From the IMG/VR virus record IMGVR_UViG_2563366830_000016: DNA of 14,107 bases. One strand, written 5' to 3'. This document shows positions 1-14,107 of this stretch, in pieces. The DNA comes from a virus (lineage: Duplodnaviria; Heunggongvirae; Uroviricota; Caudoviricetes). The notes beneath the pieces were generated by a model, which did no database searches, had not been told where the DNA came from, and saw nothing but the letters and a program-made list of their open reading frames with translations. Position numbers and translations under genes: made by a program. Positions within the stretch are counted from its first letter, which is position 1. Each line of letters opens with the position of its first letter.

Positions 1-1254
1 ATGCTGGAACAAATGGGCATTGCCGCGAAGCAAGCCTCGTATAAATTAGCGCAACTCTCCAGCCGCGAAAAAAATCGCGTGCTGGAAAAAATCGCCGATG
101 AACTGGAAGCACAAAGCGAAATCATCCTCAACGCTAACGCCCAGGATGTTGCTGACGCGCGAGCCAATGGCCTTAGCGAAGCGATGCTTGACCGTCTGGC
201 ACTGACGCCCGCACGGCTGAAAGGCATTGCCGACGATGTACGTCAGGTGTGCAACCTCGCCGATCCGGTGGGGCAGGTAATCGATGGCGGCGTACTGGAC
301 AGCGGCCTGCGTCTTGAGCGTCGTCGCGTACCGCTGGGGGTTATTGGCGTGATTTATGAAGCGCGCCCGAACGTGACGGTTGATGTCGCTTCGCTGTGCC
401 TGAAAACCGGTAATGCGGTGATCCTGCGCGGTGGCAAAGAAACGTGTCGCACTAACGCTGCAACGGTGGCGGTGATTCAGGACGCCCTGAAATCCTGCGG
501 CTTACCGGCGGGTGCCGTGCAGGCGATTGATAATCCTGACCGTGCGCTGGTCAGTGAAATGCTGCGTATGGATAAATACATCGACATGCTGATCCCGCGT
601 GGTGGCGCTGGTTTGCATAAACTGTGCCGTGAACAGTCGACAATCCCGGTGATCACAGGTGGTATAGGCGTATGCCATATTTACGTTGATGAAAGTGTAG
701 AGATCGCTGAAGCATTAAAAGTGATCGTCAACGCGAAAACTCAGCGTCCGAGCACATGTAATACGGTTGAAACGTTGCTGGTGAATAAAAACATCGCCGA
801 TAGCTTCCTGCCCGCATTAAGCAAACAAATGGCGGAAAGCGGCGTGACATTACACGCAGATGCAGCTGCACTGGCGCAGTTGCAGGCAGGCCCTGCGAAG
901 GTGGTTGCTGTTAAAGCCGAAGAGTATGACGATGAGTTTCTGTCATTAGATTTGAACGTCAAAATCGTCAGCGATCTTGACGATGCCATCGCCCATATTC
1001 GTGAACACGGCACACAACACTCCGATGCGATCCTGACCCGCGATATGCGCAACGCCCAGCGTTTTGTTAACGAAGTGGATTCGTCCGCTGTTTACGTTAA
1101 CGCCTCTACGCGTTTTACCGACGGCGGCCAGTTTGGTCTGGGTGCGGAAGTGGCGGTAAGCACACAAAAACTCCACGCGCGTGGCCCAATGGGGCTGGAA
1201 GCACTGACCACTTACAAGTGGATCGGCATTGGTGATTACACCATTCGTGCGTAA
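1..1254 (+). CDS. proA: Gamma-glutamyl phosphate reductase (glutamate-5-semialdehyde dehydrogenase), complete
   Basis: 417-aa ORF starting at base 1 with ATG; translation recognised as enterobacterial ProA over its whole length (ends ...[12 protein letters not shown]); lies directly upstream of tRNA-Thr, as at the E. coli proA-thrW locus. Confidence 0.95.
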
Positions 1255-1368
1255 ATAAAACCGGGTGATGCAAAAGTAGCCATTTGATTCACAAGGCCAT
1301 TGACGCATCGCCCGGTTAGTTTTAACCTTGCCCACCGTGATTCACGTTCGTGAACATGTCCTTTCAGG

Positions 1369-1444
1369 GCCGATATAGCTCAGTTGGTAGAGCAGCGCAT
1401 TCGTAATGCGAAGGTCGTAGGTTCGACTCCTATTATCGGCACCA
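1369..1444 (+). tRNA. thrW: tRNA-Thr (anticodon CGU)
   Basis: 76-nt sequence GCCGATATAGCTCAGTTGGTAGAGC...GGTTCGACTCCTATTATCGGCACCA with cloverleaf-compatible arms, anticodon loop TTCGTAA (CGT) and encoded 3' CCA; recognised as enterobacterial thrW, a known integration target for P4-like and P22-like elements. Confidence 0.95.
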
Positions 1445-1461
1445 TTCAAACATCTCCCCAA

Positions 1462-1545
1462 GTCTACTAAAGTCTTTCAAAACCCCTTATAATCCGCGTA
1501 TTAAAGCCCCGTTCGTCTTTTGACGTCTACTAAAGTCCCTCAAAA
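1462..1545 (+). repeat. Two 21-bp direct repeats (GTCTACTAAAGTCTTTCAAAA at 1462-1482; GTCTACTAAAGTCCCTCAAAA at 1525-1545) between the tRNA 3' end and int; candidate integrase arm-type sites in attL
   Basis: Read directly: 19/21 identical copies spaced about 63 bp apart, immediately downstream of the tRNA and upstream of the integrase start. Tyrosine integrases of tRNA-integrating elements commonly bind arm-type repeats in this position; the function is inferred. Confidence 0.4.
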
Positions 1546-1609
1546 TCTACGGTCAGATGGGGGTACTTATGGGGGTATTTGCTGTTCGGTTTAGTGGAGG
1601 TACCCCCAA

Positions 1610-2824
1610 GTGAAACTCAATGCCCGTCAAATAGACACAGCCAAGCCAAAAGAGAAGGCTTACAAGCTGGCCGATGGTGGCGGTTTGTATCTCTTGGTAA
1701 AACCTAATGGAGGTAAATACTGGCGACTTAAATATCGTGTAGATGGTAAAGAGAAGCTATTGGCACTAGGTGTGTATCCTGAGGTTACTCTAGCCGATGC
1801 TCGGGCAAAACGTGAAGATGCGAAAAGAGGTATCGCTGGTGGTATCGATCCGATGGAAGCGAAACGAGAGGAAAAGATTGCCCGGGAAACGCAGTTAAAC
1901 AACACCTTCAAAGATATTGCCCTTGAGTGGCACAGCAGCAAATTAAAAAAATGGTCTGCTGGTTATGCTTCAGACATCCTCGAAGCCTTCAACAAAGATG
2001 TGTTCCCTTACATTGGCAAAAAACCAATCGCCGAAATCAAACCACTTGAACTTCTGAATGTGCTGCGGCGCATCGAGGGGCGCGGTGCTACAGAAAAAGC
2101 CAAAAAAGTGAGGCAGCGGTGCGGGGAAGTTTTCCGCTATGCAATAGTCACTGGTCGCGCAGAGTATAACCCTGCACCAGACCTTACTAGCGCGATGCAA
2201 GGCCATGAATCTAATCATTACCCTTTCCTTACAGCTAAAGAATTACCTGATTTTTTCAAGGCATTGTCCAGTTACTCAGGAAGCGCATTGGTTGTTATGG
2301 CGGCTCGTCTACTGATTATCACCGGCTTGCGGACTGGCGAACTACGTGGCGCATTATGGGATGAAATTGATTTCAACAAGGCTATCTGGGAGATACCCGC
2401 TTCACGTATGAAAATGCGGCGGCCTCATATTGTGCCATTGTCTGATCAGGCTCTTTCGCTTATTGGGAAGATTAGAGAAATAACAGGCAATTACCCTCTT
2501 ATGTTTCCCGGGCGCAATGATCCAAGGAAAACAATGAGTGAGGCCAGCATAAACCAAGTGTTTAAGCGCATTGGCTACGCTGGACGTGTAACTGGTCATG
2601 GGTTCCGGCACACTATGAGTACGATTTTGCATGAGCAGGGCTATAACACCGCGTGGATAGAAACGCAGCTCGCTCACGTTGATAAGAACTCAATTCGTGG
2701 CACATACAACCATGCGCAATATCTGGATGGAAGGCGGGAGATGCTTCAATGGTATGCCGACTATATGGATTCTCTCGAGCATGGCGGAAATGTGGTGCAT
2801 ATGGTGTTTGAAAAACACGCATGA
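1610..2824 (+). CDS. Tyrosine-type site-specific integrase, P4-like family (GTG start)
   Basis: 404-aa ORF; N-terminus KLADGGGLYLLVKPNGGKYWRLKYRVDGKEKLLALGVYPEVTLADARAKR is the typical P4-type integrase arm-binding domain; C-terminal HGFRHT and catalytic-Tyr region (YNHAQY) consistent with tyrosine recombinases. GTG at 1610 is the only in-frame start; GGAGG lies 9 nt upstream. Adjacent to the tRNA. Confidence 0.9.
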   Translation: MKLNARQIDTAKPKEKAYKLADGGGLYLLVKPNGGKYWRLKYRVDGKEKLLALGVYPEVTLADARAKREDAKRGIAGGIDPMEAKREEKIARETQLNNTFKDIALEWHSSKLKKWSAGYASDILEAFNKDVFPYIGKKPIAEIKPLELLNVLRRIEGRGATEKAKKVRQRCGEVFRYAIVTGRAEYNPAPDLTSAMQGHESNHYPFLTAKELPDFFKALSSYSGSALVVMAARLLIITGLRTGELRGALWDEIDFNKAIWEIPASRMKMRRPHIVPLSDQALSLIGKIREITGNYPLMFPGRNDPRKTMSEASINQVFKRIGYAGRVTGHGFRHTMSTILHEQGYNTAWIETQLAHVDKNSIRGTYNHAQYLDGRREMLQWYADYMDSLEHGGNVVHMVFEKHA

Positions 2825-2967
2825 AACAACTGGACAAGTATACAGAGGTTTACTAAAGTATAGGGGAGTAGATTGATAAAAACTCACAGAGGATTGCTAT
2901 TTAACAGTTAGCCCTGGAGAAGGGCAATCGCTCTTTTATAAACGAAGGTGTATTGAGCCTTCTACGT

Positions 2968-3032
2968 CGCTGACAAAGCGGAATGTTCTTTAACAGGCTT
3001 TGGCGCTGACAAAGCGCAATTGTTCTTTAAAA
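2968..3032 (+). repeat. Tandem imperfect direct repeats of about 28 bp (CGCTGACAAAGCGGAATGTTCTTTAACA / GCGCTGACAAAGCGCAATTGTTCTTTAAAA) in the int-alpA intergenic region
   Basis: Read directly at 2968-2995 and 3003-3032. Position between int and the regulator gene suggests a protein-binding or regulatory site; function unknown. Confidence 0.4.
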
Positions 3033-3131
3033 CTACTGGATGTCACGCCTAATAGCGTGATCCTGCCGAAATGCAGGGTAGCTCTACCCTTGTGGAGCGA
3101 ACAAACCAAAACAATCTGACTATCTTTTATA

Positions 3132-3166
3132 AAAGACCGCAATATGTTTTTCATATTGTGGTCTTT
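3132..3166 (+). promoter_or_regulatory. Long inverted repeat (15-bp arms, 5-nt centre): AAAGACCGCAATATG-TTTTT-CATATTGTGGTCTTT, upstream of alpA
   Basis: Read directly; one mismatch in 15 bp; no U-tract follows on either strand, so operator-like or RNA-structure rather than an intrinsic terminator. A TTGACG motif follows at 3181-3186. Confidence 0.4.
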
Positions 3167-3252
3167 GGCGTATTCGACATTTGACGCAAATAAAACTCTC
3201 GCCATTCGTTGCAGGAGGGGGTTATTGCGTCATTAGTACAGGATATTAATAA

Positions 3253-3456
3253 ATGGCTAATTACAATTCATTAATTCGTCTCTCTGAAGTTCAAAGGCGA
3301 ACTGGTTATAGCAAAGCATGGATTTATCGTCTTATTAGTCAGGGGAGGTTCCCTAAACAGGTAAAAATTGGAAGTCGGGCAATTGCTTTTGTTGAGTCTG
3401 AAATAGATGAATGGATTGAGAAGTGTATATTAGAATCTAGAGACGAGGTGGCCTGA
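3253..3456 (+). CDS. alpA: AlpA-family phage/island transcriptional regulator (small HTH protein)
   Basis: 67-aa ORF with ...GYSKAWIYRLISQGRFPKQVKIGSRAIAFVESEIDEWIE..., the characteristic AlpA (prophage CP4-57 regulatory protein) pattern; AGGA about 10 nt upstream; same orientation as int, as in P4-like and PICI-type elements. Confidence 0.85.
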   Translation: MANYNSLIRLSEVQRRTGYSKAWIYRLISQGRFPKQVKIGSRAIAFVESEIDEWIEKCILESRDEVA

Positions 3457-3887
3457 TGGAAAAGAAAAACCGCCCATTACAGGCGGCTAATTCAGATATT
3501 CGTGTATCTGATGTTACGCCCCTTACAAAATCCCTTCAAGCACCAAAGCGCACACCGAAAAAGCATCGTGCCAGAGTCTATATGCTGCGTACTGGTATAG
3601 AGGGATGGACAGAAAATGACATTCTTCGCTACTGCCGTCTGTCTTCTGGTCGTAACTATGCAACAGAGTTAGAACGCCAGCTTGGAATCACTCTGGAGCG
3701 TATCGACGAAAAGAATCCTGATGGTATCGGAACACACCTTCGCTACCGTTTCTCCTGCCGTGGTGATGTTCTGAAAGTGATCACTCATATTAACCATCTT
3801 GCGAACATAAATGATCACAACGGACTTTCTCAGCAGGAAATTGCCGACATTCTGAAACTCTACCCGGACGCGTTTAACGCCGCCTAA
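3456..3887 (+). CDS. Hypothetical protein, 143 aa, basic N-terminus; translationally coupled to alpA
   Basis: ATG overlaps the alpA stop (TGATG). N-terminal Lys/Arg-rich segment (PKRTPKKHRARVY) suggests nucleic-acid binding. No family recognised. Confidence 0.6.
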   Translation: MEKKNRPLQAANSDIRVSDVTPLTKSLQAPKRTPKKHRARVYMLRTGIEGWTENDILRYCRLSSGRNYATELERQLGITLERIDEKNPDGIGTHLRYRFSCRGDVLKVITHINHLANINDHNGLSQQEIADILKLYPDAFNAA

Positions 3888-3899
3888 CGGAGACTGAAA

Positions 3900-4733
3900 A
3901 TGAACATCGAAAAAAGCAGATTAATTTCTGAGGCCGCCCCTCATCTGAACGCCTCTCTGGGCACAATTAACGGTAATGAATTTGCCGCAATTGTCCCGGT
4001 TATTCCAGGTCACATCGGTGGGCGTGAAACCAATATTGTTAGCGCAAAAGCGTTACACAAAGCGTTGGGCGTGGGAAAAGACTTCTCTACATGGATCACT
4101 GATCGCATCTCTGAATATGACTTCACCATTGGGCACGATTACTCAGTCCATAAAACAATTTCCCCAAATTTGGGGAAAAGCCCGAATGGCACGGCTTACA
4201 GCAAGATTAAGCAGTCTGGCAGACCCGGCAAAGACTATCTGTTAAGTGTCGGAATGGCGAAAGAGCTGGCAATGATCGAACGCAATGATCAGGGTCGCGC
4301 TATCCGTCGTTATTTCATCCAGTGCGAGGAAGAATTACAGCGTAGCGTGCCTGAAATCGCCGCCCGCTATCGTCGCCAGCTAAAAGCCCGTATCAGTGCC
4401 GCAAACAACTTTAAGCCAATGTGCGATGCGCTGAATATGGCCCGTGCCGAGCAGGGGAAAACGACGCAGCAACACCACTACACAAACGAGAGCAATATGA
4501 TTTCTCGTATCGTTCTTGGAGGGCTAACTGCTAAGCAGTGGGCGCGGATAAATGGCTATTCTGGCGAACCTCGCGACCATATGAACGCAGAACAGCTTGA
4601 GCACCTCTCATATCTCGAAAGCACCAATATCACGTTAATTGATATGGGCATGGAATATGAGCAGCGCAAAGGAGAACTCACCCGCCTGTCGCAACGCTGG
4701 CTCGCCAAGCGTCTGGAGGCGGTCCATGTTTAA
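3900..4733 (+). CDS. Putative phage regulatory/antirepressor-like protein (Rha/KilAC-like region)
   Basis: 277-aa ORF; GGAGA RBS 7 nt upstream; segment DYLLSVGMAKELAMIERNDQGRAIRRYFIQCEEEL resembles the conserved core of phage antirepressor (KilAC/Rha-type) domains. Family assignment is from memory of the motif, not a search. Confidence 0.55.
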   Translation: MNIEKSRLISEAAPHLNASLGTINGNEFAAIVPVIPGHIGGRETNIVSAKALHKALGVGKDFSTWITDRISEYDFTIGHDYSVHKTISPNLGKSPNGTAYSKIKQSGRPGKDYLLSVGMAKELAMIERNDQGRAIRRYFIQCEEELQRSVPEIAARYRRQLKARISAANNFKPMCDALNMARAEQGKTTQQHHYTNESNMISRIVLGGLTAKQWARINGYSGEPRDHMNAEQLEHLSYLESTNITLIDMGMEYEQRKGELTRLSQRWLAKRLEAVHV

Positions 4734-4908
4734 GCCGACAGGAACACCACAACCTCAAAAACGCTACAAAGATGCCCACGGAGCACTCGTTACTGTCGAA
4801 AGCGTGTCTCACAACCGAGTGACGTTTTATCGCGACGGGTATCAATCGCCATGCGTACAACCGCTGGCGCGCTTCATGAAGGAGTTCGCGGAGGTTAACA
4901 AATGCTAA
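4726..4908 (+). CDS. Hypothetical small protein (60 aa)
   Basis: ATG at 4726 preceded by GGAGG (8 nt spacing) and overlapping the stop of the upstream gene; in frame with track ORF 4639-4908. No family recognised. Confidence 0.5.
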   Translation: MFKPTGTPQPQKRYKDAHGALVTVESVSHNRVTFYRDGYQSPCVQPLARFMKEFAEVNKC

Positions 4909-5339
4909 CCGTCCAGAAGAAGATATTTTCACTGACTGCTATGTCGCAAAAATCCAGCAATATGACAGCAAAGTCTGGCATTAATACAGCAGATACAAGC
5001 AAAGCTTATCATTTTATGGTGGTAGGAGCGGATGCCTTAACTATGTCAGAAATTACGGTCGATGGTGTTAGCGTTGAGAAGGTCAGCGGCTGCGCCAGAG
5101 AATTTCTGGTCGTAGATGACCTGTTCTGCTCGCGTAGTGACTCCACAAAAATCTTCGTCCGCACGCGCGACGTTAACGAAATGAGCGCGATGTACTGTGC
5201 CTCTGGTTCTTCCAATAGTGAGTTTTCGGAGTCCATAAAAAAGAGCTTGCCGTTATGCGGCAACACGGTTTATGGTTATAAGGCACCTCATAAAACGGGT
5301 GCCGGGATTAGGACCCCGCAGGCAATCGAGGCGATACAT

Positions 5340-5360
5340 GACGCGCCAGCGTCTTTTTTT
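5340..5360 (+). terminator. Candidate intrinsic terminator / attenuator: GACGC-gcca-GCGTC hairpin followed by T7
   Basis: Read directly: 5-bp GC-rich stem, 4-nt loop, then TTTTTTT at 5354-5360. Short stem, so moderate-to-low confidence. Lies inside the gap with no convincing gene (4909-5524). Confidence 0.35.
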
Positions 5361-5524
5361 GTATCGGCGCACACGCACACCTTATCAATGGTGGGCTGTA
5401 TGGGGCTGACTTCGGTCAGGCTGGTTTCCTTGATTGCCAGTAGTCCTAACCCTGTACAGTCCACCGCCAGCGAGCTTAGGACCTCCGGCGGTGGCTATAA
5501 ACCATCAATCAAGGAGGCTGCCAC

Positions 5525-5719
5525 ATGCTGGCTACTACCCCTACCCAAAAACCGCAATTTATCTGGATTATCGCCGCAGTTCGCCGCGATTGCCCGACAA
5601 TTACCGCCAAAATTCATCATATTGCTGCCGAGTCTGAACGCGATGCTCGCCGTTCTCTGGTGCGCGATCACATCTGCTTTTTTGCTGGTCGTATCCGCAT
5701 GGAGGTGGCACATGATTAA
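5525..5719 (+). CDS. Hypothetical small protein (64 aa); first gene of the coupled operon leading to the primase
   Basis: Strong RBS AAGGAGG at 5511-5517, 7 nt before ATG; host-like codon usage (CTG, CGC, GCC, ATC); its stop overlaps the next gene's start. Confidence 0.7.
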   Translation: MLATTPTQKPQFIWIIAAVRRDCPTITAKIHHIAAESERDARRSLVRDHICFFAGRIRMEVAHD

Positions 5720-5930
5720 AACCTACGATGTGCATATGGATCCCCTCGAACGCACAAGCCAGATCATCACACTGACAGAAGTGATTAACGACATTCTGGT
5801 GAGCAACTCTCCCTCACGAGACGAAAGACTGAAGGCGTTACTCGCGATATTGGATCTCGCCGTTCGTGACGTTCATTTCCTGCTGGAAGGTGGACAAATG
5901 CCATGCAAAACGGGGGCAACCAATGAATAA
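5712..5930 (+). CDS. Hypothetical small protein (72 aa)
   Basis: ATG at 5712 with GGAGGTG 4-10 nt upstream; overlaps the upstream stop; forms the 3' part of track ORF 4902-5930. Confidence 0.6.
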   Translation: MIKTYDVHMDPLERTSQIITLTEVINDILVSNSPSRDERLKALLAILDLAVRDVHFLLEGGQMPCKTGATNE

Positions 5931-6117
5931 CTCAATTAATACCCCTCGCCTTACGTCCGCACTTCAATTAATCGAGCAAGCAGCGGCTGTCCTGGTTGCT
6001 GTCAGTCTTTCGGCTGAAGAAATGGACGCTGCTGATGTCGTGGATGCGATTAAAGCGTGCTCATCTTTGGTTAACGATGCCCGTGCCGAGCTGGTAATTC
6101 TTGGGGGTGAAAAATGA
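5923..6117 (+). CDS. Hypothetical small acidic protein (64 aa)
   Basis: ATG at 5923 (GGGGG 6 nt upstream), overlapping the upstream stop (ATGAATAA); acidic, predicted helical (SAEEMDAADVVDAIKA...). Confidence 0.6.
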   Translation: MNNSINTPRLTSALQLIEQAAAVLVAVSLSAEEMDAADVVDAIKACSSLVNDARAELVILGGEK

Positions 6118-6377
6118 ATATCAACTTAATTTATCGTCATCCGTGTGAGCTGGAAATTGAATCATTGCTGGGGCGCGAAGAGCCATATCCAGACACATTC
6201 ACTCCCGCAGATTGCGCGACTGAACGGCTTACCAGAGCGCGCACAGGTCTGGTTCATGTGATGAATGAGATTGTTCCCTCGGTGGGAGGGGAACAGGCGA
6301 CAGTAATCAATAGCTGGCTACAAAAAGTTACCTCCCTGATAGATATCGGTTTAATCGATGTGGAGAGTGCGAAATGA
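6114..6377 (+). CDS. Hypothetical small acidic protein (87 aa)
   Basis: ATGA start/stop overlap with upstream gene; GGGGGTG RBS. Confidence 0.65.
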   Translation: MNINLIYRHPCELEIESLLGREEPYPDTFTPADCATERLTRARTGLVHVMNEIVPSVGGEQATVINSWLQKVTSLIDIGLIDVESAK

Positions 6378-6595
6378 CCAACATCCAGCTCATTGAAGCG
6401 CAATGTCGCATCGAACAGGTTCAGACTGTTTTAGGGTTCTGGCTTGAAGGGGCCAGCCCCAGCAACAGAGACAAGTTAATGATTGGCGCGGTTATGTCAC
6501 TGCTCAATGGCGTACCAGAAGCTATTCAGGAAGCGGACGAATTGTTGGGCAAATATGAGTTACAGAATCATTCAGGCGAGGCGAAACATGAATAA
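6374..6595 (+). CDS. Hypothetical small protein (73 aa)
   Basis: ATGA overlap with upstream gene; GGAGAG RBS. Confidence 0.65.
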   Translation: MTNIQLIEAQCRIEQVQTVLGFWLEGASPSNRDKLMIGAVMSLLNGVPEAIQEADELLGKYELQNHSGEAKHE

Positions 6596-7190
6596 TTTCT
6601 TAACTTTCCATGCAGAAGCAACGCCTGACGGCGTAAACATCATGTACCGCAGCAACGATGGCATGACAGAACGCGTTGAGACCGTCTCATATATTGATGC
6701 CGTAAATCGTCTGGATGCCGGGGATTATGACGATAAACCAGATGAAGGCATGTTTATACATCTCGCTATTGCCAGTGGCGGCAACCAGGGATATTTCGAT
6801 TACACATCACAGCATCACGTGATTATGTGGCGCTGGCTGATAGCAACAGCATTCATCAATGAAATGAGAAAGGAAAACGGCACTGTCAGCATCATTGATG
6901 ATACTGGCAATCCTTCCGAAGTGGCTGTTTATTCCAACGGCATCGTCGCCATGCCGCTGTATCCAGTAGCAGAGCGCCTCGCTATGGCAAACAACATTGA
7001 GGGCGCGATGATAGAACGTTTTGGCATCGAGTCTGGCACAGAACGCGCCATCATTTTCTACAGAGCCATGATGGATGTGGAACAAGGAGCACTGACTCCA
7101 TTTGGTCGTGAAACGCTTGCTGAACTTCACAACAGCTTTATAGCTGAACTGAATGAAAACGGCATGCCAGCGGAACCAGTGACGCACTGA
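6588..7190 (+). CDS. Hypothetical protein (200 aa)
   Basis: ATG at 6588 overlaps upstream stop (ATGAATAA); GAGG RBS; internal part of track ORF 6483-7190. No family recognised. Confidence 0.7.
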   Translation: MNNFLTFHAEATPDGVNIMYRSNDGMTERVETVSYIDAVNRLDAGDYDDKPDEGMFIHLAIASGGNQGYFDYTSQHHVIMWRWLIATAFINEMRKENGTVSIIDDTGNPSEVAVYSNGIVAMPLYPVAERLAMANNIEGAMIERFGIESGTERAIIFYRAMMDVEQGALTPFGRETLAELHNSFIAELNENGMPAEPVTH

Positions 7191-7200
7191 GGATGGAGCC

Positions 7201-7542
7201 ATGATTACTAAAAATTTCCGACTGAATGCGCTGGCAAATAAGTATGCGTCAGCACTGTATAACCACATTACCTCCACCAGCGGCGGGGACTATTTCATGA
7301 TTGATGCGGACGGAGAGGCCGTCCGTGTGGAAATCGTCAATGGAGTAAAAGGCGTTCGCAGCCTGATCGATAGTTACGCACTGGCAGCCATGAAAGTGTT
7401 CTACCCGCAGTGGGAAACCGTGGGGATCGAGCTTCTTGATCGTTGCGTCACTAAGGACAGATTGACTGACGTCGGGCGTGAGATATGGCAAAGCATGGTT
7501 AATGACATGGGCGCAACTGTAGCGGGAGGTTCTCATGCGTGA
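7201..7542 (+). CDS. Hypothetical protein (113 aa)
   Basis: GAGGATGGAG RBS directly upstream; overlaps downstream gene start. Confidence 0.7.
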   Translation: MITKNFRLNALANKYASALYNHITSTSGGDYFMIDADGEAVRVEIVNGVKGVRSLIDSYALAAMKVFYPQWETVGIELLDRCVTKDRLTDVGREIWQSMVNDMGATVAGGSHA

Positions 7543-7906
7543 AAATGTAGAAATGGCGCTTAGCTCCGCAATCGGAGAGCAGGTGGCAAAGATTGCTGGT
7601 GCTGTGTGGATTCATAACCTTCATTCTACTGGTGAAGAGAAAATGGCAATTCAGACGCCAGAGGGACGCACCATTACTACATCTCTGAAGCCGTCAGATG
7701 TTTGTGATCTGATTTGCGCATTCATGTACCCAGCAATGAGGACTGTCCACGGCGATAAGTGGAAACTTGCGACAACCGCTGAATTTGATATGTGGCTAAA
7801 CAATGATGGCATGCTGACTGATTACGGAATAACCAAGTGGCAGATGCTAGTTAGCCATATCGCAAACGCTATAGACCACGTGGGGTACGGTGATGCGAAA
7901 CATTGA
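7535..7906 (+). CDS. Hypothetical protein (123 aa)
   Basis: GGGAGG RBS 6 nt upstream; 3' end overlaps the primase start by 14-17 nt. Confidence 0.7.
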   Translation: MRENVEMALSSAIGEQVAKIAGAVWIHNLHSTGEEKMAIQTPEGRTITTSLKPSDVCDLICAFMYPAMRTVHGDKWKLATTAEFDMWLNNDGMLTDYGITKWQMLVSHIANAIDHVGYGDAKH

Positions 7907-10649
7907 TCTTATCCGTCAGGTTATCAGTGCGTCTGAAAACAACTGGCCTCATGTGCTGGGCTGCCTGAACATAAATGTCCCTGACTCTCCGCGCCGTCAT
8001 GCTCCCTGCCCTGCATGTGGGGGCAAAGATCGATTCCGGTTCGATGACAACGGGCGCGGTAGCTTCATCTGTAATCAGTGCGGCGCTGGTGATGGGCTGG
8101 ATTTAATTAAACGCGTAAATAACTGCGACACAACAGAGGCGGCGCTTCTTGCCGCTGATGTTCTGGGTATTGATTACCGGACAACGGAAACACCAGAAGC
8201 CACCAGCCAGAAACGGGAACAACTGGAAACCGAGCGCCAGCGACGCGAACAGGAGCGCCTGAAAAGGGCAGAGAAGGACGAACAACAAAGACGGGATACG
8301 TTTTCCCGTCAGTTTGATGACATGCGCAGAAAGGCTGTAAACGGCAAATCTGATTATCTGGTTGCGAAAGGGGTAGGTGATTTTACATTCCCCGTGTTGC
8401 CCGATGGATCTCTGTTGCTGGCGCTGGTGGATAAATCCGGCGCAGTAACAGCAGCACAGACTATTACCTCACATGGTGAAAAAAGACTCCTGACAGGTTC
8501 AGCAAAGCGAGGGGCATATCACGCCATAAACGCACCAGAAACAACACAGAGCATCTTAATCGCAGAAGGGCTGGCAACGGCATTATCTGCCCATTTAATG
8601 CGTCCAGAGGCGCTGACAGTGGCGGCGATTGATGCCGGGAACCTGTTATATGTCGCCCAGGTACTGCGGGATAAATTTCCTTCAGCACAAATCATCATTG
8701 CTGCGGATAACGACCACAGCGAAGGAAGACAAAACACGGGGAGAATAGCAGCAGAAAAAGCAGCTTTATCTGTTTCTGGATGGGTGGCATTACCCCCGAC
8801 AGATCACAAAGCAGACTGGAATGATTACCACCAAAAACACGGCATTAAATGCGCCACAGAAGCGTTCAATAAGTCAATGTACCAACCACAGGGTAATGGC
8901 GTGAAACAGGAGCCACAGACCATTGAGGGAAGCGATTTTAAGGTTATGGATACCGATCCACTGAAACCAAGAATAGAAAGCCGCGAGGATGGTATTTATT
9001 GGGTATCTCCGAGAGCTGACAGCCAGAGTGGAGAAATCATCAATAACGAAAGCTGGTTATGTTCTCCGTTAAGCGTTATCGGTACTGGCAGAGACGATAA
9101 AGACCAGTATCTCATTCTTCGCTGGCTGTCGTTTGGTTCTGAAACGCCGACAACCGCTGCCATTCCACTGGCTGATATTGGTGAACGTGAAGGATGGCGC
9201 ACACTTAAAGCTGGTGGGGTAAATGTCACGACCAAAAGCAGCCTCAGAGCAATACTGGCAGACTGGCTACAACGCAGTGGCTCTCGTGAATTGTGGCGTG
9301 TTGCTCATGCCACTGGCTGGCAATGCGGAGCGTACATCATGCCTGATGGGGAAATCATCGGAACACCTGAAAATCCTGTGCTGTTCAGCGGGAGAAGCTC
9401 AGCCGCAGCCGGATATACCGTCTCAGGGAGCGCGAAAAGCTGGCGTGATAACGTGGCGCGTCTGGCCTTTGGTAACTATTCAATGATGACCGGGATCGGC
9501 GCAGCACTGGCAGCGCCATTGATTGGGCTGGTGGGCGCTGACGGGTTCGGCATTCATTTCTATGAGCAGTCGAGCGCAGGTAAGACCACCACGGCAAACG
9601 TGGCGAGCAGCTTATACGGCAACCCTGATTTACTGCGGCTGACGTGGTACGGAACCGCGCTGGGGCTGGCAAATGAGGCCGCCGCCCACAATGACGGACT
9701 AATGCCGCTTGATGAAGTTGGTCAGGGCGCTGATCCTGTCAGCGTTTCACAGTCTGCCTATGCGTTATTTAACGGTGTAGGGAAACTGCAAGGCGCTAAA
9801 GATGGTGGAAACCGGGATCTAAAACGCTGGCGTACAGTGGCAATCAGCACCGGAGAAATGGATTTAGAAACATTTATCGCTACTTCCGGGCGAAAAACCA
9901 AAGCCGGGCAACTGGTGCGACTGCTGAATATTCCGTTGAGTAAAGCAGTACGCTTTCACGATTACCAGAACGGAAAACAGCACGCAGACGCACTGAAAGA
10001 CGCTTACCAGCATCACCACGGCGCGTCCGGGCGTGAGTGGATTAAATGGCTGGCAGACCACCAGCAACAGGCTATTAAAACCGTTCGTGACTGCGAAAGC
10101 AGATGGAGAAGCCTGATCCCATCCGATTATGGTGAGCAGGTTCACCGTGTAGCCGCGCGATTTGCCATTCTGGAGGCCGCATTGTTGTTAGGCGAGGTTG
10201 TAACAGGCTGGGATGCTCAGACATGCCGTGATGCGATACAGCACAGCTATAACGCATGGTTGCGCGAGTTCGGCACAGGTAACAAAGAGCATCAGCAGAT
10301 TATTGAACAAACGGAGGCATTTCTTAATGCCTATGGGCTTAGCCGTTTTGCACCATTTCCATACAGCCCGGCAGATTTGCCCATCAAAGATTTAGCCGGA
10401 TACCGTCAGCGTGGAGAACATGACGAAAGCCCAATGATTTTCTACACATTCCCGGCCACATTTGAAAAGGAGATCGCATGTGGTTTCAACGCAAAACAGT
10501 TTGCTGAAGTGTTGAAAAAAGCCGGGATGCTAACCCCACCAAACAGCGGTCGTGGATACCAAAGAAAATCACCACGTATTCAGGGACGACAAATAAACGT
10601 TTATGTACTCAATTACCAGCCAGGAGATTATAACTCATCTGAAGAATGA
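7890..10649 (+). CDS. Satellite/phage-type DNA primase-helicase (primase Zn-ribbon + TOPRIM + P-loop NTPase, P4 alpha-like)
   Basis: 919-aa ORF. N-terminal zinc-ribbon CPACGG...FICNQCG typical of primase-helicase Zn-binding domains; charged linker (EQLETERQRREQERLKRAEKDEQQRR); TOPRIM-like acidic motif (IAADNDHSEGRQ); Walker A (SSAGKTTT). Track start is GTG 7890; ATG at 7893 is the alternative. Confidence 0.9.
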   Translation: MMRNIDLIRQVISASENNWPHVLGCLNINVPDSPRRHAPCPACGGKDRFRFDDNGRGSFICNQCGAGDGLDLIKRVNNCDTTEAALLAADVLGIDYRTTETPEATSQKREQLETERQRREQERLKRAEKDEQQRRDTFSRQFDDMRRKAVNGKSDYLVAKGVGDFTFPVLPDGSLLLALVDKSGAVTAAQTITSHGEKRLLTGSAKRGAYHAINAPETTQSILIAEGLATALSAHLMRPEALTVAAIDAGNLLYVAQVLRDKFPSAQIIIAADNDHSEGRQNTGRIAAEKAALSVSGWVALPPTDHKADWNDYHQKHGIKCATEAFNKSMYQPQGNGVKQEPQTIEGSDFKVMDTDPLKPRIESREDGIYWVSPRADSQSGEIINNESWLCSPLSVIGTGRDDKDQYLILRWLSFGSETPTTAAIPLADIGEREGWRTLKAGGVNVTTKSSLRAILADWLQRSGSRELWRVAHATGWQCGAYIMPDGEIIGTPENPVLFSGRSSAAAGYTVSGSAKSWRDNVARLAFGNYSMMTGIGAALAAPLIGLVGADGFGIHFYEQSSAGKTTTANVASSLYGNPDLLRLTWYGTALGLANEAAAHNDGLMPLDEVGQGADPVSVSQSAYALFNGVGKLQGAKDGGNRDLKRWRTVAISTGEMDLETFIATSGRKTKAGQLVRLLNIPLSKAVRFHDYQNGKQHADALKDAYQHHHGASGREWIKWLADHQQQAIKTVRDCESRWRSLIPSDYGEQVHRVAARFAILEAALLLGEVVTGWDAQTCRDAIQHSYNAWLREFGTGNKEHQQIIEQTEAFLNAYGLSRFAPFPYSPADLPIKDLAGYRQRGEHDESPMIFYTFPATFEKEIACGFNAKQFAEVLKKAGMLTPPNSGRGYQRKSPRIQGRQINVYVLNYQPGDYNSSEE

Positions 10650-10672
10650 GCTTCTTCATGTGCGTAGAAAAG

Positions 10673-10787
10673 GTGTTGGTTCAGTTGGTTTAGTTGGTTC
10701 AATTTGTAAAGAGTATTGTTTTATAAGGATTTTATTCTTTTTATTGAACCAACACTGAACCAACAACACGGTATTTTGAACCAACAC
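10673..10787. repeat. Iteron-type origin candidate: 3 direct repeats GTTGGTT(C/T)A (10673-10701), AT-rich spacer, 3 inverted copies TGAACCAAC(A)AC (10745-10787)
   Basis: Read directly. Clustered 9-11 bp repeats in opposing orientation around an AT-rich core, immediately downstream of the primase-helicase gene, is the classic arrangement of a satellite/phage replication origin. Confidence 0.65.
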
Positions 10788-10893
10788 AATGTGACTGAAT
10801 TGATGCGCACAACACCTGGCTGGCATCAGAGAGTGTTTTACGAGACTTTCGTAAAATCCTGTGTACAAGGGCGTGACGTTTTTGAAAGTGAGC

Positions 10894-10912
10894 ACTACGA
10901 AATTTTCGTAGT
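10894..10912. promoter_or_regulatory. 19-bp palindrome ACTACGAAA-T-TTTCGTAGT (operator-like), with an additional TTTCGTA half-site about 45 bp upstream
   Basis: Read directly; 9-bp arms, perfect. Related half-site within ACTTTCGTAAAAT at 10845-10857. Function inferred. Confidence 0.35.
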
Positions 10913-11105
10913 TCAGAAAACAGCCTCTGAGAAGTTGTTATGCCTGTTCAGCAAACCATCCGCATAGCTGATCGCGAATCAAATTACCAATGGAGCCAGA
11001 AGCAAGGGCAGAACTGAAAAGCGCCTGCCGTGAAGAGTAATGCGACACCATAAATATAGTTTTTAGAGTCCATAAAAAACCTGTCAAAACCTGACACACA
11101 GAACG

Positions 11106-11138
11106 ATGCCACCAGCTACTGAGCGGTGGCATTTTTTT
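11106..11138 (+). terminator. Rho-independent terminator (8-bp stem ATGCCACC/GGTGGCAT, 11-nt loop, T7 tract)
   Basis: Read directly: perfect 8-bp GC-rich stem followed by TTTTTTT at 11132-11138. Confidence 0.65.
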
Positions 11139-11171
11139 GTGCTATTTGTTTCATATTTTGCAATTACGATG

Positions 11172-11200
11172 ATGAATATTGCGATTTGTGAAACTATAAT
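11172..11200 (+). promoter_or_regulatory. Candidate sigma70 promoter: consensus -10 TATAAT (11195-11200) with weak -35 ATGAAT at 17-bp spacing
   Basis: Perfect TATAAT hexamer 34 nt upstream of the ATG at 11234 and just downstream of the terminator; the -35 is weak, so low confidence. Confidence 0.35.
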
Positions 11201-11233
11201 AACTGTTGTTTTATACAGTTCTAAGGGGGCGTT

Positions 11234-11395
11234 ATGGCTATTTCAGTAAAGCCGGTATTGATAAGTGAGAAGCAAATGGAAGCGATAAAGAAAATTCAGG
11301 AAGAGCAGCGTAAAAAATCAGGAATTGGAGTAGCGCCAACTCTGCATGAAATTGCACGAGGGTTAATAGATAAGGCGCTGGCAGGCTGTATGTGA
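11234..11395 (+). CDS. Small ORF (53 aa), ribbon-helix-helix-like predicted fold; putative DNA-binding regulator or antitoxin-like protein
   Basis: Below the 60-aa track cutoff; found by reading. AAGGGGG RBS 4-5 nt upstream. MAISVKPVLISEKQMEAIKKIQEEQRKKSGIGVAPTLHEIARGLIDKALAGCM shows a beta-strand/helix/helix pattern typical of Arc/MetJ/CopG-type proteins. Fold assignment is inference. Confidence 0.45.
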   Translation: MAISVKPVLISEKQMEAIKKIQEEQRKKSGIGVAPTLHEIARGLIDKALAGCM

Positions 11396-11411
11396 AAATG
11401 GATGGCATCGC

Positions 11412-11873
11412 ATGGAACTAAAATTTATTGATAACCCTGTGCGATTACAGGCCTTTCTTAACGAGCCAGGCAATACCGAAAATATTGTTGAGCCGGGGCA
11501 CACGTACTACATCAAGCCTGATGCGGTATATCTCGGCATCTACGAAGGATTAGTGCTGGCTGGCGTTCATGAAGTGCGTAACTTCTGGCATAGCGTTGTT
11601 GAATGCCATGCGGTGTACGACCCCGGATTCCGTGGTGAATATGCACTGCAAGGACATCGATTATTCTGCAAATGGCTTCTCGAAAACTCACCATTCCTTA
11701 ACAGCATCACTATGGTTCCTGACACCACGAAATACGGACGGGCAATTATCCGTTTGCTTGGCGCTACCCGTGTTGGTCACCTTGATGATGCTTATATCAG
11801 ATGTGGTAAACCCGTCGGCGTAACGCTTTATCAGTTAACTCGGCAACAATATAAGGAATTCAGCGAATGTTAA
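11412..11873 (+). CDS. Hypothetical protein (153 aa), possibly P22 gp14-like; co-transcribed with downstream ejection-protein-like genes
   Basis: 153-aa ORF; its stop overlaps the next gene's start (ATGTTAA). Position and size match the gene preceding gp7 in P22-like clusters; the homology is recalled, not verified. Confidence 0.6.
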   Translation: MELKFIDNPVRLQAFLNEPGNTENIVEPGHTYYIKPDAVYLGIYEGLVLAGVHEVRNFWHSVVECHAVYDPGFRGEYALQGHRLFCKWLLENSPFLNSITMVPDTTKYGRAIIRLLGATRVGHLDDAYIRCGKPVGVTLYQLTRQQYKEFSEC

Positions 11874-12544
11874 TTACCCATATAGCTCATAAACATCTCA
11901 ATCGTGCCGTATACGAAAAAGGCGGTGATGGTGGTGCCTCTAAAGCTCAGGCGAAGGCCCAGCAGCAGGCAATTGATTTGCAGCGCGAGCAGTGGAATAC
12001 GGTGATGAATAATCTCAAGCCGTATGCAGAAGTCGGATTGCCTGCTTTACAACAACTACAAGGACTGATGACTCTGGAAGGGCAGAATAAAGCCGCGAAT
12101 GATTTCTTTGGTTCTGGTTTATATAAAACACAGGCAGATCAGGCCCGTTATCAGAACCTTGTCTCAGCAGAAACTACCGGGGGGCTTGGCTCAACAGCTA
12201 CCAGTAACCAGTTATCTTCCATTGCGCCCATGCTTTATAACAATTGGCTTAGTGGGCAAATGCAAAATTATGGAAACCTGCTAAATGTCGGGATGAATGC
12301 GGCATCAGGGCAGGCAACGGCAGGGCAAAACTACGCCAATAATACCGGACAACTCTTGCAGGGGCTTGGCGCTATTCGTGCAGGTCAGGCGCAGCAGCCA
12401 TCCAGTCTTGCGCGTGGTATTGGTGGGGCAGCATCAGGCGCTTTAGCGGGTGCGCAACTTGGTTCCGTTGTTCCTGGAATAGGAACTGCGGCCGGCGCTA
12501 TTGGTGGTGGGCTTATTGGTCTTGTTGGGGGGCTTGGATTCTAA
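11867..12544 (+). CDS. P22 gp7-like DNA-transfer (ejection) protein candidate, Gln/Gly/Ala-rich with glycine-zipper hydrophobic C-terminus
   Basis: 225-aa ORF, AAGGA RBS; low-complexity Q/G/A-rich composition and C-terminal GIGTAAGAIGGGLIGLVGGLGF segment. Size and composition match podovirus ejection protein gp7 (about 229 aa). Assignment by composition and synteny only. Confidence 0.55.
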   Translation: MLITHIAHKHLNRAVYEKGGDGGASKAQAKAQQQAIDLQREQWNTVMNNLKPYAEVGLPALQQLQGLMTLEGQNKAANDFFGSGLYKTQADQARYQNLVSAETTGGLGSTATSNQLSSIAPMLYNNWLSGQMQNYGNLLNVGMNAASGQATAGQNYANNTGQLLQGLGAIRAGQAQQPSSLARGIGGAASGALAGAQLGSVVPGIGTAAGAIGGGLIGLVGGLGF

Positions 12545-13863
12545 TGGCGACATGGCAACTTGGCGGGCTGCCTAGCATGGCACCGCAAAATGATAATGCT
12601 CCTCGTTCTTCCGTTCCTCAGCCTGTGCAGTATCAGCAGCAGCCAAACGTAGGTTTAATGGCGCTACAGGGGCTAAGAGGCGTTGCTGAGATTAATCAGC
12701 AGGCGCAAATTTCCCAGCAGCTAAAAGAATATCAGGCACGGTTGGGTAGTGCGGTAGCTAATAATGATCGTGTTGGCGTGCAGAAGTTAATGGCCCAGTA
12801 TCCCCAGTTTATGGCTGATTCTCAAAAACAGATGGGATTCATTGATGCTGAGCAAAATCGGCAGACCGCTGACGCTGCCATGAATCTGCGTCTTGCGTCA
12901 CAAACTGGAGATCCACTGACCATGCAGAAGGCCATTCAGCAGGCAAATCCAGTATTACAGCGATTTGGTCTTCCTGCTGAAGAGGTTTATCAGTCTTGGC
13001 AGAATGACCCACAGGAATTCAACAGAATCACTGACCTCATCCACCTCCATGCTGATCCAAATAGTTACTTTAGTGTTCAAGAGAAGCAGCAAGGGCAGAG
13101 TATTGCACAGCAGAACGCAGATACATCTGCATATAATGCTCAGGTTAATGCGGAGCAGGGTAATCGGCGGCTCGATATGGAGCAGTTCAAAGTCCTATCC
13201 GATAACCAACTACGCACGAGAGAAATGGTTCTGAAAGCACGACTTGGACGTGCTCAAAATGACATCGAGAGAGACAAGCTCAATGCTGAACTGAGCAAGG
13301 TACAGCAGGCGAAAGTGGAGAAGATGAACGATAAAATTAATACTGTTGCAGGTAATATCGACTCCTTGAACTCTGCGCTTGAAGTGGGTCATGAACTGGC
13401 GGGAATTGTAGGGAAACATCCTTCGGCCGTTACCCGTTCGCAGAACTATAACCCCCTGACGCTGGGGTTTGGATTCCTCCCTGATGTAGCAGAAGACACA
13501 CGAAGCCTACGCGCCAAAGCTGATGAATACAACCTAAAGGTTATTCTGCCTAGCCTAAAAGGTACTTTTGGCTCTAACCCAACCGAAGGGGAAAGGGCTG
13601 CCCTTATGCAATCTCAAAATGGCATTAAGTCAGCAACCAGCAATGAGGCATTTTTGCGAGAGTTGAATAAAGCGCAGGACGTAATTATTCGAATGCAGAA
13701 ACGACAGATTGCCGGGCTCGGTATTCCTGTAACCAAATCTAAGGACGAAGAAACTGATACCAAAATGCTGTTGCAGGATCCTTCACTGGTTAAGGATTAT
13801 GTGACCGCACATGGCTATCTGCCGGAAAGTTACTATCAGGCAAAACTTAAGGGATGGCAATGA
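12544..13863 (+). CDS. P22 gp20-like DNA-transfer (ejection) protein candidate, Gln-rich coiled-coil protein
   Basis: 439-aa ORF starting at TAATG overlap with the upstream gene; Q-rich, helical/coiled-coil character; size and position match gp20 (about 470 aa) of P22-like phages. Assignment is inference. Confidence 0.55.
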   Translation: MATWQLGGLPSMAPQNDNAPRSSVPQPVQYQQQPNVGLMALQGLRGVAEINQQAQISQQLKEYQARLGSAVANNDRVGVQKLMAQYPQFMADSQKQMGFIDAEQNRQTADAAMNLRLASQTGDPLTMQKAIQQANPVLQRFGLPAEEVYQSWQNDPQEFNRITDLIHLHADPNSYFSVQEKQQGQSIAQQNADTSAYNAQVNAEQGNRRLDMEQFKVLSDNQLRTREMVLKARLGRAQNDIERDKLNAELSKVQQAKVEKMNDKINTVAGNIDSLNSALEVGHELAGIVGKHPSAVTRSQNYNPLTLGFGFLPDVAEDTRSLRAKADEYNLKVILPSLKGTFGSNPTEGERAALMQSQNGIKSATSNEAFLRELNKAQDVIIRMQKRQIAGLGIPVTKSKDEETDTKMLLQDPSLVKDYVTAHGYLPESYYQAKLKGWQ

Positions 13864-13888
13864 TGGCACAACTGACAGAAAAACAGAA
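13863..13888 (+). pseudogene. 5' stub (about 9 codons, MAQLTEKQN...) of the next gene in the cluster (gp16-like position), truncated by IS insertion
   Basis: ATG at 13863 overlaps the upstream stop (TGATG), continuing the coupling pattern; the reading frame runs into the IS terminal repeat beginning at 13889. Confidence 0.35.
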
Positions 13889-14107
13889 TGAACCGCCCCG
13901 GGAATCCTGGAGACTAAACTTCCTGAGAAAGAGGTAAACAGGATGACTAAAAATACTCGTTTTTCCCCTGAAGTCCGTCAACGGGCAGTCCGTATGGTTC
14001 TGGAAAGTCAGGGCGAATATGACTCACAATGGGCGACAATTTGTTCCATTGCTCCAAAGATTGGCTGTACGCCGGAGACTCTGCGTGTCTGGGTTCGCCA
14101 GCATGAG
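13889..14107 (+). mobile_element. IS3-family insertion sequence, IS629/IS1203-like, left end (partial; continues beyond window)
   Basis: Terminal sequence TGAACCGCCCCGGGAATCCTGGAGACTAAAC followed by orfA encoding [55 protein letters not shown], recognised as the IS629-type OrfA N-terminus (HTH transposase subunit). Identity recalled, not searched. Confidence 0.8.
13943..14107 (+). CDS. IS3-family transposase OrfA (N-terminal 55 codons; truncated by window end)
   Basis: ATG at 13943 with GAGG RBS; translation matches IS629-like OrfA N-terminus; ORF open to the last base of the window. Confidence 0.85.

Follow-up and report, generated by a model that had tools for sequence, protein, structure and literature searches.

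EcCIMP1 is a phage-inducible chromosomal island (PICI) of Escherichia coli MP1 whose excision and transfer depend on the P22-like helper phage Kapi1 (Pick, Stadel and Raivio, ISME J 2025, PMC11773190). The paper that described it named the DUF2824 gene and the 'DNA transfer' genes 3′ of the island's primase as packaging candidates, and reported a phenotype of superinfection immunity that is unexplained; it did not discuss a 53-amino-acid (aa) gene in this region, the promoter of that gene or the swapping of the cargo behind it (PMC11773190). Here we analyzed a stretch of 14,107 nucleotides (nt), IMG/VR record IMGVR_UViG_2563366830_000016, which we refer to at its full length as the window, and focused on this 53-aa gene, whose product is a predicted ribbon-helix-helix (RHH)-like protein, and on the 153-aa gene that follows it. 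The window is a variant of EcCIMP1, a PICI integrated at thrW: it shares the integration site and gene order of EcCIMP1, is 98.2–98.3% identical to the island of MP1 over positions 1254–13888, and differs by a gp16-like gene that has been cut by an insertion sequence (IS).

The small RHH repressors P22 Arc and Mnt, CopG and omega offer a second comparison. Inverted half-sites about 10.5 bp apart are the geometry of the Arc operator, and the P22 record annotates an arc operator. The 53-aa protein is like these repressors in size (Arc also has 53 aa), in its strand-helix-helix topology (predicted here) and in being encoded by the first gene of an operon, and its promoter is likewise overlapped by inverted half-sites about 10.5 bp apart. 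It differs from them in showing no sequence likeness and no Pfam RHH match, and in having a longer helix A (18 residues), a 7-residue loop and a hydrophobic strand; moreover, Arc has a single 21-bp operator, whereas two separate palindromes lie 30 bp apart here. A further likeness is to SaPI operon I, the packaging operon of staphylococcal islands and also a late virion-related satellite operon with an SOS box at its promoter, whose LexA control provides a precedent (Ubeda 2007, as cited in PMC6739421), although the organisms, proteins and LexA motif differ, and the box in the window is predicted only and is not conserved in all lineages. We found that the small gene and its promoter sit at the boundary between a constant island arm and swappable cargo, and we favor, with moderate confidence, the view that the 53-aa RHH-type protein is a dedicated regulator of the island's virion-protein cargo operon, acting through two palindromes in that promoter, O1 and O2.

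The 53-aa gene, its promoter and its changing cargo

A preliminary description of the window, made from its letters alone, had called the 53-aa open reading frame (ORF) unannotated. It has no assigned function and falls below a 60-aa cutoff, but RefSeq already holds it as a hypothetical protein. The positions given there for this ORF and for the 153-aa ORF were exactly right, as were the 16-nt spacer between the two and the good ribosome-binding site of the small gene (Table 1). We compared the gene across 21 related loci from twelve genera (Escherichia, Serratia, Klebsiella, Citrobacter, Leclercia, Cedecea, Raoultella, Pantoea, Rahnella, Lonsdalea, Pectobacterium and Chimaeribacter), which are given L numbers where single loci need to be told apart. 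The frame was intact in every one, at lengths of 53–66 aa, and a ribosome-binding site of the GGAGG/GGGGG type lay 5–9 nt upstream in 18 of the 19 distinct start contexts; the context without such a site was that of L016, where the small gene is internal to its operon. In a codon alignment of 16 distinct loci (Nei-Gojobori), mean pS was 0.77 (saturated) against a mean pN of 0.28, and dN/dS was 0.05–0.17 for the non-saturated pairs. Given the intact frame, the recurring ribosome-binding site and this pattern of substitution, we concluded that the small ORF is a real protein-coding gene under purifying selection rather than a chance ORF.

Relatives of the 53-aa protein numbered 44, all from Enterobacterales, in a word-indexed search of 5.8 billion proteins, and 60 cluster representatives, nearly all of 45–90 aa, in an exhaustive profile search of 1.84 billion representatives. 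They share a conserved core, V-K-P-V-L-L ... Q..A(I/L)..IQE..R..S..G.AP(T/S)(I/L)H.IARGL.DKAL, and have a variable C-terminal tail. The 53-aa protein is basic, with a net charge of about +3 calculated from its sequence, and it represents a new family that has yet to be named, with a fold of a known kind and a role that is likely conventional. The junction of promoter, small gene and DUF2824 gene was present in 258 of 5426 complete E. coli genomes.

Upstream of the small gene, a terminator-like hairpin and T-run end the primase/origin region, from which we take the operon that starts with the 53-aa gene to have a promoter of its own. The TATAAT hexamer of this promoter was kept in 13 of 16 aligned loci, while its −35 region is poor, which is why a default sigma-70 scan made no call. 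O1 and O2 each consist of inverted 5-bp half-sites about 10.5 bp apart, with the consensus ATTKCA-N5-TGMAAY across loci, and both their position and their half-sites were conserved across genera. Their centers lie 30 bp apart, with no indel between them in any locus, and each of the loci examined has the pair upstream of its small gene. The window holds no second pair of this type and the genome of the helper Kapi1 holds none, and the idea that O1 and O2 are targets shared with the helper was dropped. One relative, L020, has a second O1/O2-type pair, also 30 bp apart, at 4737–4781, which is 2.2 kb upstream of its small gene.

In 20 of the 21 loci, the small gene lies downstream of the DUF927 primase gene on the same strand. 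The backbone of L016 (Citrobacter amalonaticus) is rearranged, and its small gene is third in the operon after two extra ORFs (183 and 64 aa); here the sole O1/O2 pair (6175–6219) still has the 30-bp spacing and lies at the head of the operon, 0.8 kb upstream of the small gene. The small gene is therefore in fixed linkage with the O1/O2 promoter, and not with its cargo. The pair travels with the gene, is unique in the window and is absent from Kapi1, a pattern that a dedicated regulator of its own operon would be expected to show, and such a regulator is the simplest interpretation.

The genes behind the small gene encode envelope-piercing or DNA-conducting virion proteins in 20 of the 21 islands, and their type varies by island. 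The cargo types were compared over L002, L005-L007 and L010-L025. Genes of the gp20/gp16 type begin 5–18 nt after the small gene in Serratia and in one further E. coli lineage, which have neither DUF2824 nor gp7 there. Klebsiella michiganensis and Rahnella carry a baseplate-hub-like gene at this place, Leclercia and Klebsiella a T7 gp14-like gene together with genes for large SLT-domain proteins, and Cedecea, Raoultella and Pectobacterium giants of the SLT 'injection transglycosylase' type. In Chimaeribacter, Pantoea, Lonsdalea and Serratia silvae, a conserved ORF of 108–109 aa stands between the small gene and a tape-measure gene. The exception is L016, whose next gene codes for a protein bearing a HEAGH metalloprotease-like motif. 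Among the E. coli cargo variants, homology breaks at window position 11382, within the last codons of the small gene. The DUF2824 gene, for its part, follows the tail-needle gene directly in Kapi1 and P22, and with an IS in between in a prophage remnant of O157, in each case with no small ORF upstream.

Two side observations concern these arrangements. The 108–109-aa ORF (MEQLQRLAE.IAETYI...; phrog_19131) was seen in L015, L018, L020, L022 and L023, at about 7153–7488, and is placed as DUF2824 is before gp7. A predicted protein of 189 aa, P0207, combines the N-terminal 40 residues of the small-protein family with a small-terminase (Terminase_2) domain; this fusion probably reflects a frameshift or a gene-calling error where terS directly follows the small gene.

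Predicted fold and proposed role of the 53-aa protein

The preliminary description had read a strand/helix/helix pattern of the Arc/MetJ/CopG type from the small ORF, and structure prediction agreed with this reading, whereas sequence-profile searches gave no match to an RHH family. In an AlphaFold2 model built on a 17-sequence alignment (mean pLDDT 85.8), residues 1–11 are extended and residues 12–29 and 37–52 form helices, which is the strand-helix-helix topology of an RHH domain of about 45 residues, and the model superposed on solved RHH domains. Its best structural match was the N-terminal RHH domain of TraM (pED208, PDB 3omy/3on0), with 13% identity; TraM has in addition a C-terminal tetramerisation domain and works at plasmid oriT, whereas the island gene has no conjugation context. 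A PHROG search with the 53-aa protein gave nothing below E 0.1, NCBIfam gave nothing usable that links it to an RHH family, and the profile search of 1.84 billion representatives gave no bridge from the small protein to any named family. BLASTP against P22 Arc found nothing, and no likeness to the Arc/Mnt proteins of Kapi1 was found. The RHH fold is supported as a prediction by the model.

As the regulator of its own operon, the 53-aa protein would bind O1 and O2 as a dimer of dimers, an arrangement known from Arc at its operator and compatible with the geometry of the half-sites. Because the two palindromes surround and occupy the −35/spacer region of this promoter, whose −10 hexamer is perfect, we infer that binding most probably represses. 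The payload of the operon is a copy of a helper-type DNA-ejection module, made up of an assembly factor of the gp14/internal virion protein A (IVP-A) kind and homologues of gp7, gp20 and gp16, and tight control would be needed because the cargo proteins are envelope-active.

SOS control may be added, in the window's lineage, by a LexA-box-like site that overlaps the inferred transcription start. No other CTGT-N8-ACAG occurs in the window, the number expected by chance being 0.18, and the score of the site, 21.6 bits, was reached in only 1 of 2000 shuffles of the window. A canonical box was found in the window and in L005-7, L009, L018, L019, L022 and L025, and the lineages that have it beyond the window are the Serratia, Pantoea coffeiphila, Pantoea sp. 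1.19 and Lonsdalea loci. Judged by these motifs, LexA control is plausible for the window's lineage, but it is not a family trait, since most lineages deviate from the canonical box. The notion that the CTGTAT element 3′ of the −10 hexamer is a LexA box conserved across the family was weakened, most lineages being 1 nt off.

Several observations weigh against the proposed role, beginning with the fold itself. At E ≤ 1, Pfam gave no match for the 53-aa protein or for 35 of its relatives, and a profile search of the PDB returned no RHH protein and nothing relevant. The AlphaFold model is that of a monomer, and the ribbon itself lies outside it. The putative strand, V-K-P-V-L-I/L, is unusually hydrophobic, and an alignment to CopG or TraM by the start of helix A would, on inspection, place V, P and L, and no polar residues, at the DNA-facing positions. 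Over the family, the strand reads x-(K/R/Q)-(P/V/A)-(V/I)-L-(L/I) and is polar only at position 6 (K/R/Q) and at the variable positions 3–4, in a register that is uncertain relative to CopG and TraM. Sequence-specific DNA reading, which we infer for the ribbon from the predicted fold, is not assured, because the putative strand is hydrophobic and lacks the usual base-reading alternation. O1 and O2 would suit a helix-turn-helix dimer equally well, and the half-sites and the protein are both nearly invariant. As for the SOS component, the LexA weight matrix was built from an informally compiled set of 19 E. coli SOS boxes, with leave-one-out scores of 9–28 bits. The canonical CTGT-N8-ACAG occurs in only about 6 of 16 lineages; the site is 1 nt off or mutated in L002, L010-L015, L017, L020, L021 and L023, and most of the other lineages carry CTGT-N8-CAGG, which scores 7–9 bits.

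The hydrophobic V-K-P-V-L-L strand, which resembles a protein-protein interface more than a DNA-reading ribbon, would be at home in a small protein that is no transcription factor at all, but a TraM/TraY-like packaging adaptor, or a loader of the next virion protein through beta-augmentation by its N-terminal strand. TraM, whose N-terminal domain is the best structural match, is a relaxosome accessory protein and not a repressor; the small gene heads operons of virion proteins, and in some contigs a small terminase gene is directly next to it or frameshift-fused with it (P0207). We nevertheless consider such a role unlikely, although it deserves to be kept in mind: the cargo proteins are mutually unrelated (P22 E-proteins, tape measure, hub, SLT giants), so that no shared physical partner readily suggests itself; what the small gene is strictly inherited with is a promoter that carries paired palindromes; and the small protein is basic and of the size of an RHH domain. 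It is more doubtful still that O1 and O2 are bound by some other factor, be it AlpA, a further conserved protein of the island, a host factor or just LexA at the start site, while the small protein acts in trans on helper or host promoters. Palindromes of 17 bp do suit helix-turn-helix dimers, AlpA and several conserved proteins without an assigned function are among the island's products, and the superinfection immunity of EcCIMP1 awaits an explanation (PMC11773190). With no further pair of this type in the window or in Kapi1, however, there is no visible trans target that carries the motif, and even the rearranged L016 has kept its small gene linked to the operator pair.

The remaining candidate is a type II toxin-antitoxin pair of the RHH-GNAT kind (AtaR-AtaT, TacA-TacT or KacA-KacT type), in which the 153-aa protein would be a toxin that acetylates tRNA, and the 53-aa protein both its antitoxin and the autoregulator of a bicistronic operon. 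Such a layout had been seen in the preliminary description, and it is superficially right: a small RHH-like gene lies 16 nt 5′ of the 153-aa gene, the protein encoded by the latter has a GNAT fold (see below), and AtaT-AtaR, TacT-TacA and KacT-KacA have the same gene order, with a GNAT-fold gene of about 150–175 aa following the small one. Here, however, the two genes are unlinked in evolution. The small gene elsewhere precedes gp20/gp16, T7-type, tape-measure or hub genes; Kapi1, P22 and the O157 prophage remnant have DUF2824 but no small ORF upstream of it; and within E. coli a recombination junction (11382) falls at the small gene's 3′ end. With its 53 aa, the small protein has no more than the length of an RHH domain, with helix 2 ending at residue 52, and lacks the C-terminal neutralising segment of the DUF1778-type antitoxins, which have about 90–100 aa. 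Neither protein matched the DUF1778 or Acetyltransf families of Pfam, and no NCBIfam or PADLOC model matched either of them. Furthermore, the 153-aa gene overlaps the gp7 gene, the next structural gene, just as in phages, and its GNAT-fold product belongs to the gp14/IVP-A family inside a structural operon. Because the genes dissociate, the tail is missing, the gp7 gene is overlapped and no toxin-antitoxin or defence profile matched, we rejected this layout and regard it as highly improbable. The outcomes set against a regulator or toxin-antitoxin-like pair in the preliminary description were gp14-type homology of the 153-aa protein without toxicity, and the lack of a predicted RHH fold in the small ORF; the homology was found, yet the fold is predicted. 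A false toxin-antitoxin lead is thus removed.

The 153-aa protein and the ejection module

The fallback offered in the preliminary description, a gp14-like gene in an ejection cluster, is in agreement with what we found. The 153-aa protein matched Pfam DUF2824 (PF11039) with an E-value of 1.5e-61 (207.2 bits against a cutoff of 25, over 148 of 151 profile positions) and PHROG 651 ('head morphogenesis') with 1e-66. P22 gp14 is in the same family (E 6e-53, 179 bits), as is Kapi1_055 (216 bits). The 153-aa protein is 84% identical to Kapi1_055 and 23% identical to P22 gp14, and its DUF2824 family is very strongly conserved, at 72–85% identity across genera. Its gene lies directly upstream of homologues of gp7 (IVP-B), gp20 and gp16, and its product is an ordinary member of the gp14/IVP-A family. 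P22 gp14 ('virion stability factor' or 'head assembly protein', the former in the curated P22 record for gene 14) and T7 gp13 (internal virion protein A) share with it both this position directly before a gp7 (IVP-B) homologue and an acetyltransferase-like fold; in P22, the standard IVP-A homologue is found just before gene 7 (PMC4819975). In the phage, however, P22 gp14 follows the tail-needle gene, whereas the 153-aa gene is satellite-borne and is preceded by a promoter and the small gene.

No clear GNAT motif had been seen in the 153-aa protein from the letters alone, but an AlphaFold model (pLDDT 92) displays the classical GNAT strand/helix order, a fold known for the IVP-A class of T7 gp13 and P22 gp14 (PMC4819975). 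The structural neighbours of the model among viral models include proteins named 'DUF2824', 'putative acetyltransferase' and 'Internal virion protein A'. T7 IVP-A is non-structural, is required for morphogenesis, is absent from the finished virion and has an acetyltransferase match by HHpred (Hardies et al., PMC4819975), and by analogy the 153-aa protein is likely a non-structural assembly factor with a GNAT fold. Among 30 DUF2824 proteins, His53, Cys65, His66, His82, Cys86 and His123 were invariant, and the GNAT acetyl-CoA loop motif was degenerate; these His and Cys residues hint at a possible metal site or non-canonical chemistry.

Downstream, the 225-aa gp7 homologue is 57% identical to Kapi1_056 and 55% identical to P22 gp7, and the 439-aa gp20 homologue is 26–28% identical to the gp20 proteins of Kapi1 and P22. 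The gp16-like gene, of which the window keeps only the start, is intact in the EcCIMP1 of MP1, where it encodes 906 aa with a lytic transglycosylase domain; this gp16 homologue is about 24% identical to that of the helper. The insertion that cuts it has its terminal repeat, TGAACCGCCCCGGG, at 13889 and the ATG of its OrfA at 13943. The same gp16-like gene is shortened in strain cq9 (L001).

Table 1. Features of the window and their positions (numbering from the first nucleotide of the 14,107-nt stretch)
Feature	Position	Strand	Remarks
proA-like gene	1–1254		left end of the window
tRNA-Thr, anticodon CGT	1369–1444		thrW integration site, as in EcCIMP1
Island integrase gene	1610–2824
Hairpin then T-run, terminator-like	11097–11141	+	17-nt arms, 82% complementary, GGTGGCATTTTTTT at end; also found in terminator scan
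O1, 17-bp palindrome GTTTCA-N5-TGCAAT, candidate operator	11148–11164	.	about −59 to −43 from the inferred transcription start
−35 region ATGAAT, weak	11172–11177	+	read from sequence
O2, 17-bp palindrome ATTGCG-N5-TGAAAC, candidate operator	11178–11194	.	fills the −35/−10 spacer and abuts the −10 hexamer
−10 hexamer TATAAT	11195–11200	+	read from sequence
LexA-box-like site AACTGTTGTTTTATACAGTT	11201–11220	.	over the inferred transcription start, predicted near 11207
Shine-Dalgarno AAGGGGG of the 53-aa gene	11223–11229	+	4 nt 5′ of the ATG at 11234
53-aa gene, predicted RHH-like protein	11234–11395 (ATG to stop)	+	WP_001018524.1; first gene of the cargo operon
153-aa gene, DUF2824 protein, P22 gp14/IVP-A homologue, GNAT fold (modeled)	11412–11873	+	Pfam, PHROG, AlphaFold
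P22 gp7 ejection-protein homologue, 225 aa	11867–12544	+	Pfam P22_gp7, E 2.3e-72; 7-nt overlap with the 153-aa gene
P22 gp20 ejection-protein homologue, 439 aa	12544–13863	+	Pfam Inj_translocase, E 3.7e-22; PHROG 917/2534; 1-nt overlap with the 225-aa gene
gp16-like gene, first 26 nt	13863–13888	+	cut by an IS629/IS1203-type insertion from 13889

The island as a whole

From its left end, the window carries proA, tRNA-Thr and genes for an integrase, AlpA, AntA and Ash, followed by several small ORFs and a TOPRIM/DUF927 primase gene. It has the make-up of a PICI: integrase, AlpA, primase and downstream module all point the same way at a tRNA site, and capsid and lysis genes are lacking. On a wider and more tentative reading, EcCIMP1-type islands across Enterobacterales might consist of a constant left arm (integrase, AlpA, Ash, DUF927 primase, origin), a control module (the O1/O2 promoter and the 53-aa gene) and swappable, helper-matched 'DNA-delivery cassettes', with which satellites would re-equip helper virions or block superinfection, while the small protein would keep the envelope-active cargo silent until induction. 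The cassettes would then be of several types: P22-type ejection proteins, T7-type internal virion proteins with transglycosylase domains, tape-measure proteins of siphoviruses or myoviruses, and baseplate hubs. A satellite could carry ejection, tape-measure or hub genes in order to re-equip helper particles, to escape exclusion aimed at ejection proteins, or to confer superinfection immunity; work on P22 SieA shows how much ejection proteins vary (PMC10461980). Full-text searches within one library of papers returned nothing on RHH proteins in EcCIMP1-type islands or on satellite-encoded ejection or tape-measure cargo.

For a hypothetical protein present in hundreds of RefSeq E. coli genomes, these results, modest in themselves, provide a family definition and a hypothesis at the level of function, but the swapping of cargo across islands matters more than the small gene itself. 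If satellites do put their cargo into helper particles, this would be a new way to exploit or sabotage a helper, and it might explain the superinfection immunity of EcCIMP1; in that case the promoter, together with the small protein, would offer a compact entry point for switching the cargo on and off. Two other explanations of the cargo were tried and rejected. The cargo genes are not flanking genes of a helper prophage, as in a 'helper-embedded satellite' (PMC10111431), since island genes (PerC, helix-turn-helix) and chromosomal genes follow and there is no prophage there; and the tail-assembly-interference (Tai) systems (PMC11364771) involve unrelated genes.

Some smaller elements of the island were also recorded. 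Just 3′ of the primase stop, at 10673–10787, is an iteron-type origin layout in which three direct copies of GTTGGTTCA with 9-bp spacing (10675–10707) face three inverted copies, which read TGAACCAAC (10744–10787), as in other phage-inducible islands. Between this region and the terminator-like hairpin, the minus strand holds a hydrophobic ORF of 29 aa (10984–11073) rich in Cys, Trp and Phe (MDSKNYIYGVALLFTAGAFQFCPCFWLHW). A Serratia island, L005, has MDSKNYLSLLICWFKILGCWFIVGSFLN at the same relative position (start 9749), with the first six residues and the hydrophobicity as the only features in common. The 29-aa ORF could be a type-I-toxin-like or small membrane peptide. Finally, within the ash ORF (4902–5930), Rfam gave gathering-level matches to the isrK Hfq-binding RNA at 5283–5359 (63 bits) and to the C4 antisense RNA at 5384–5471 (80 bits), which suggests a P1/P4-type RNA immunity element inside the island.

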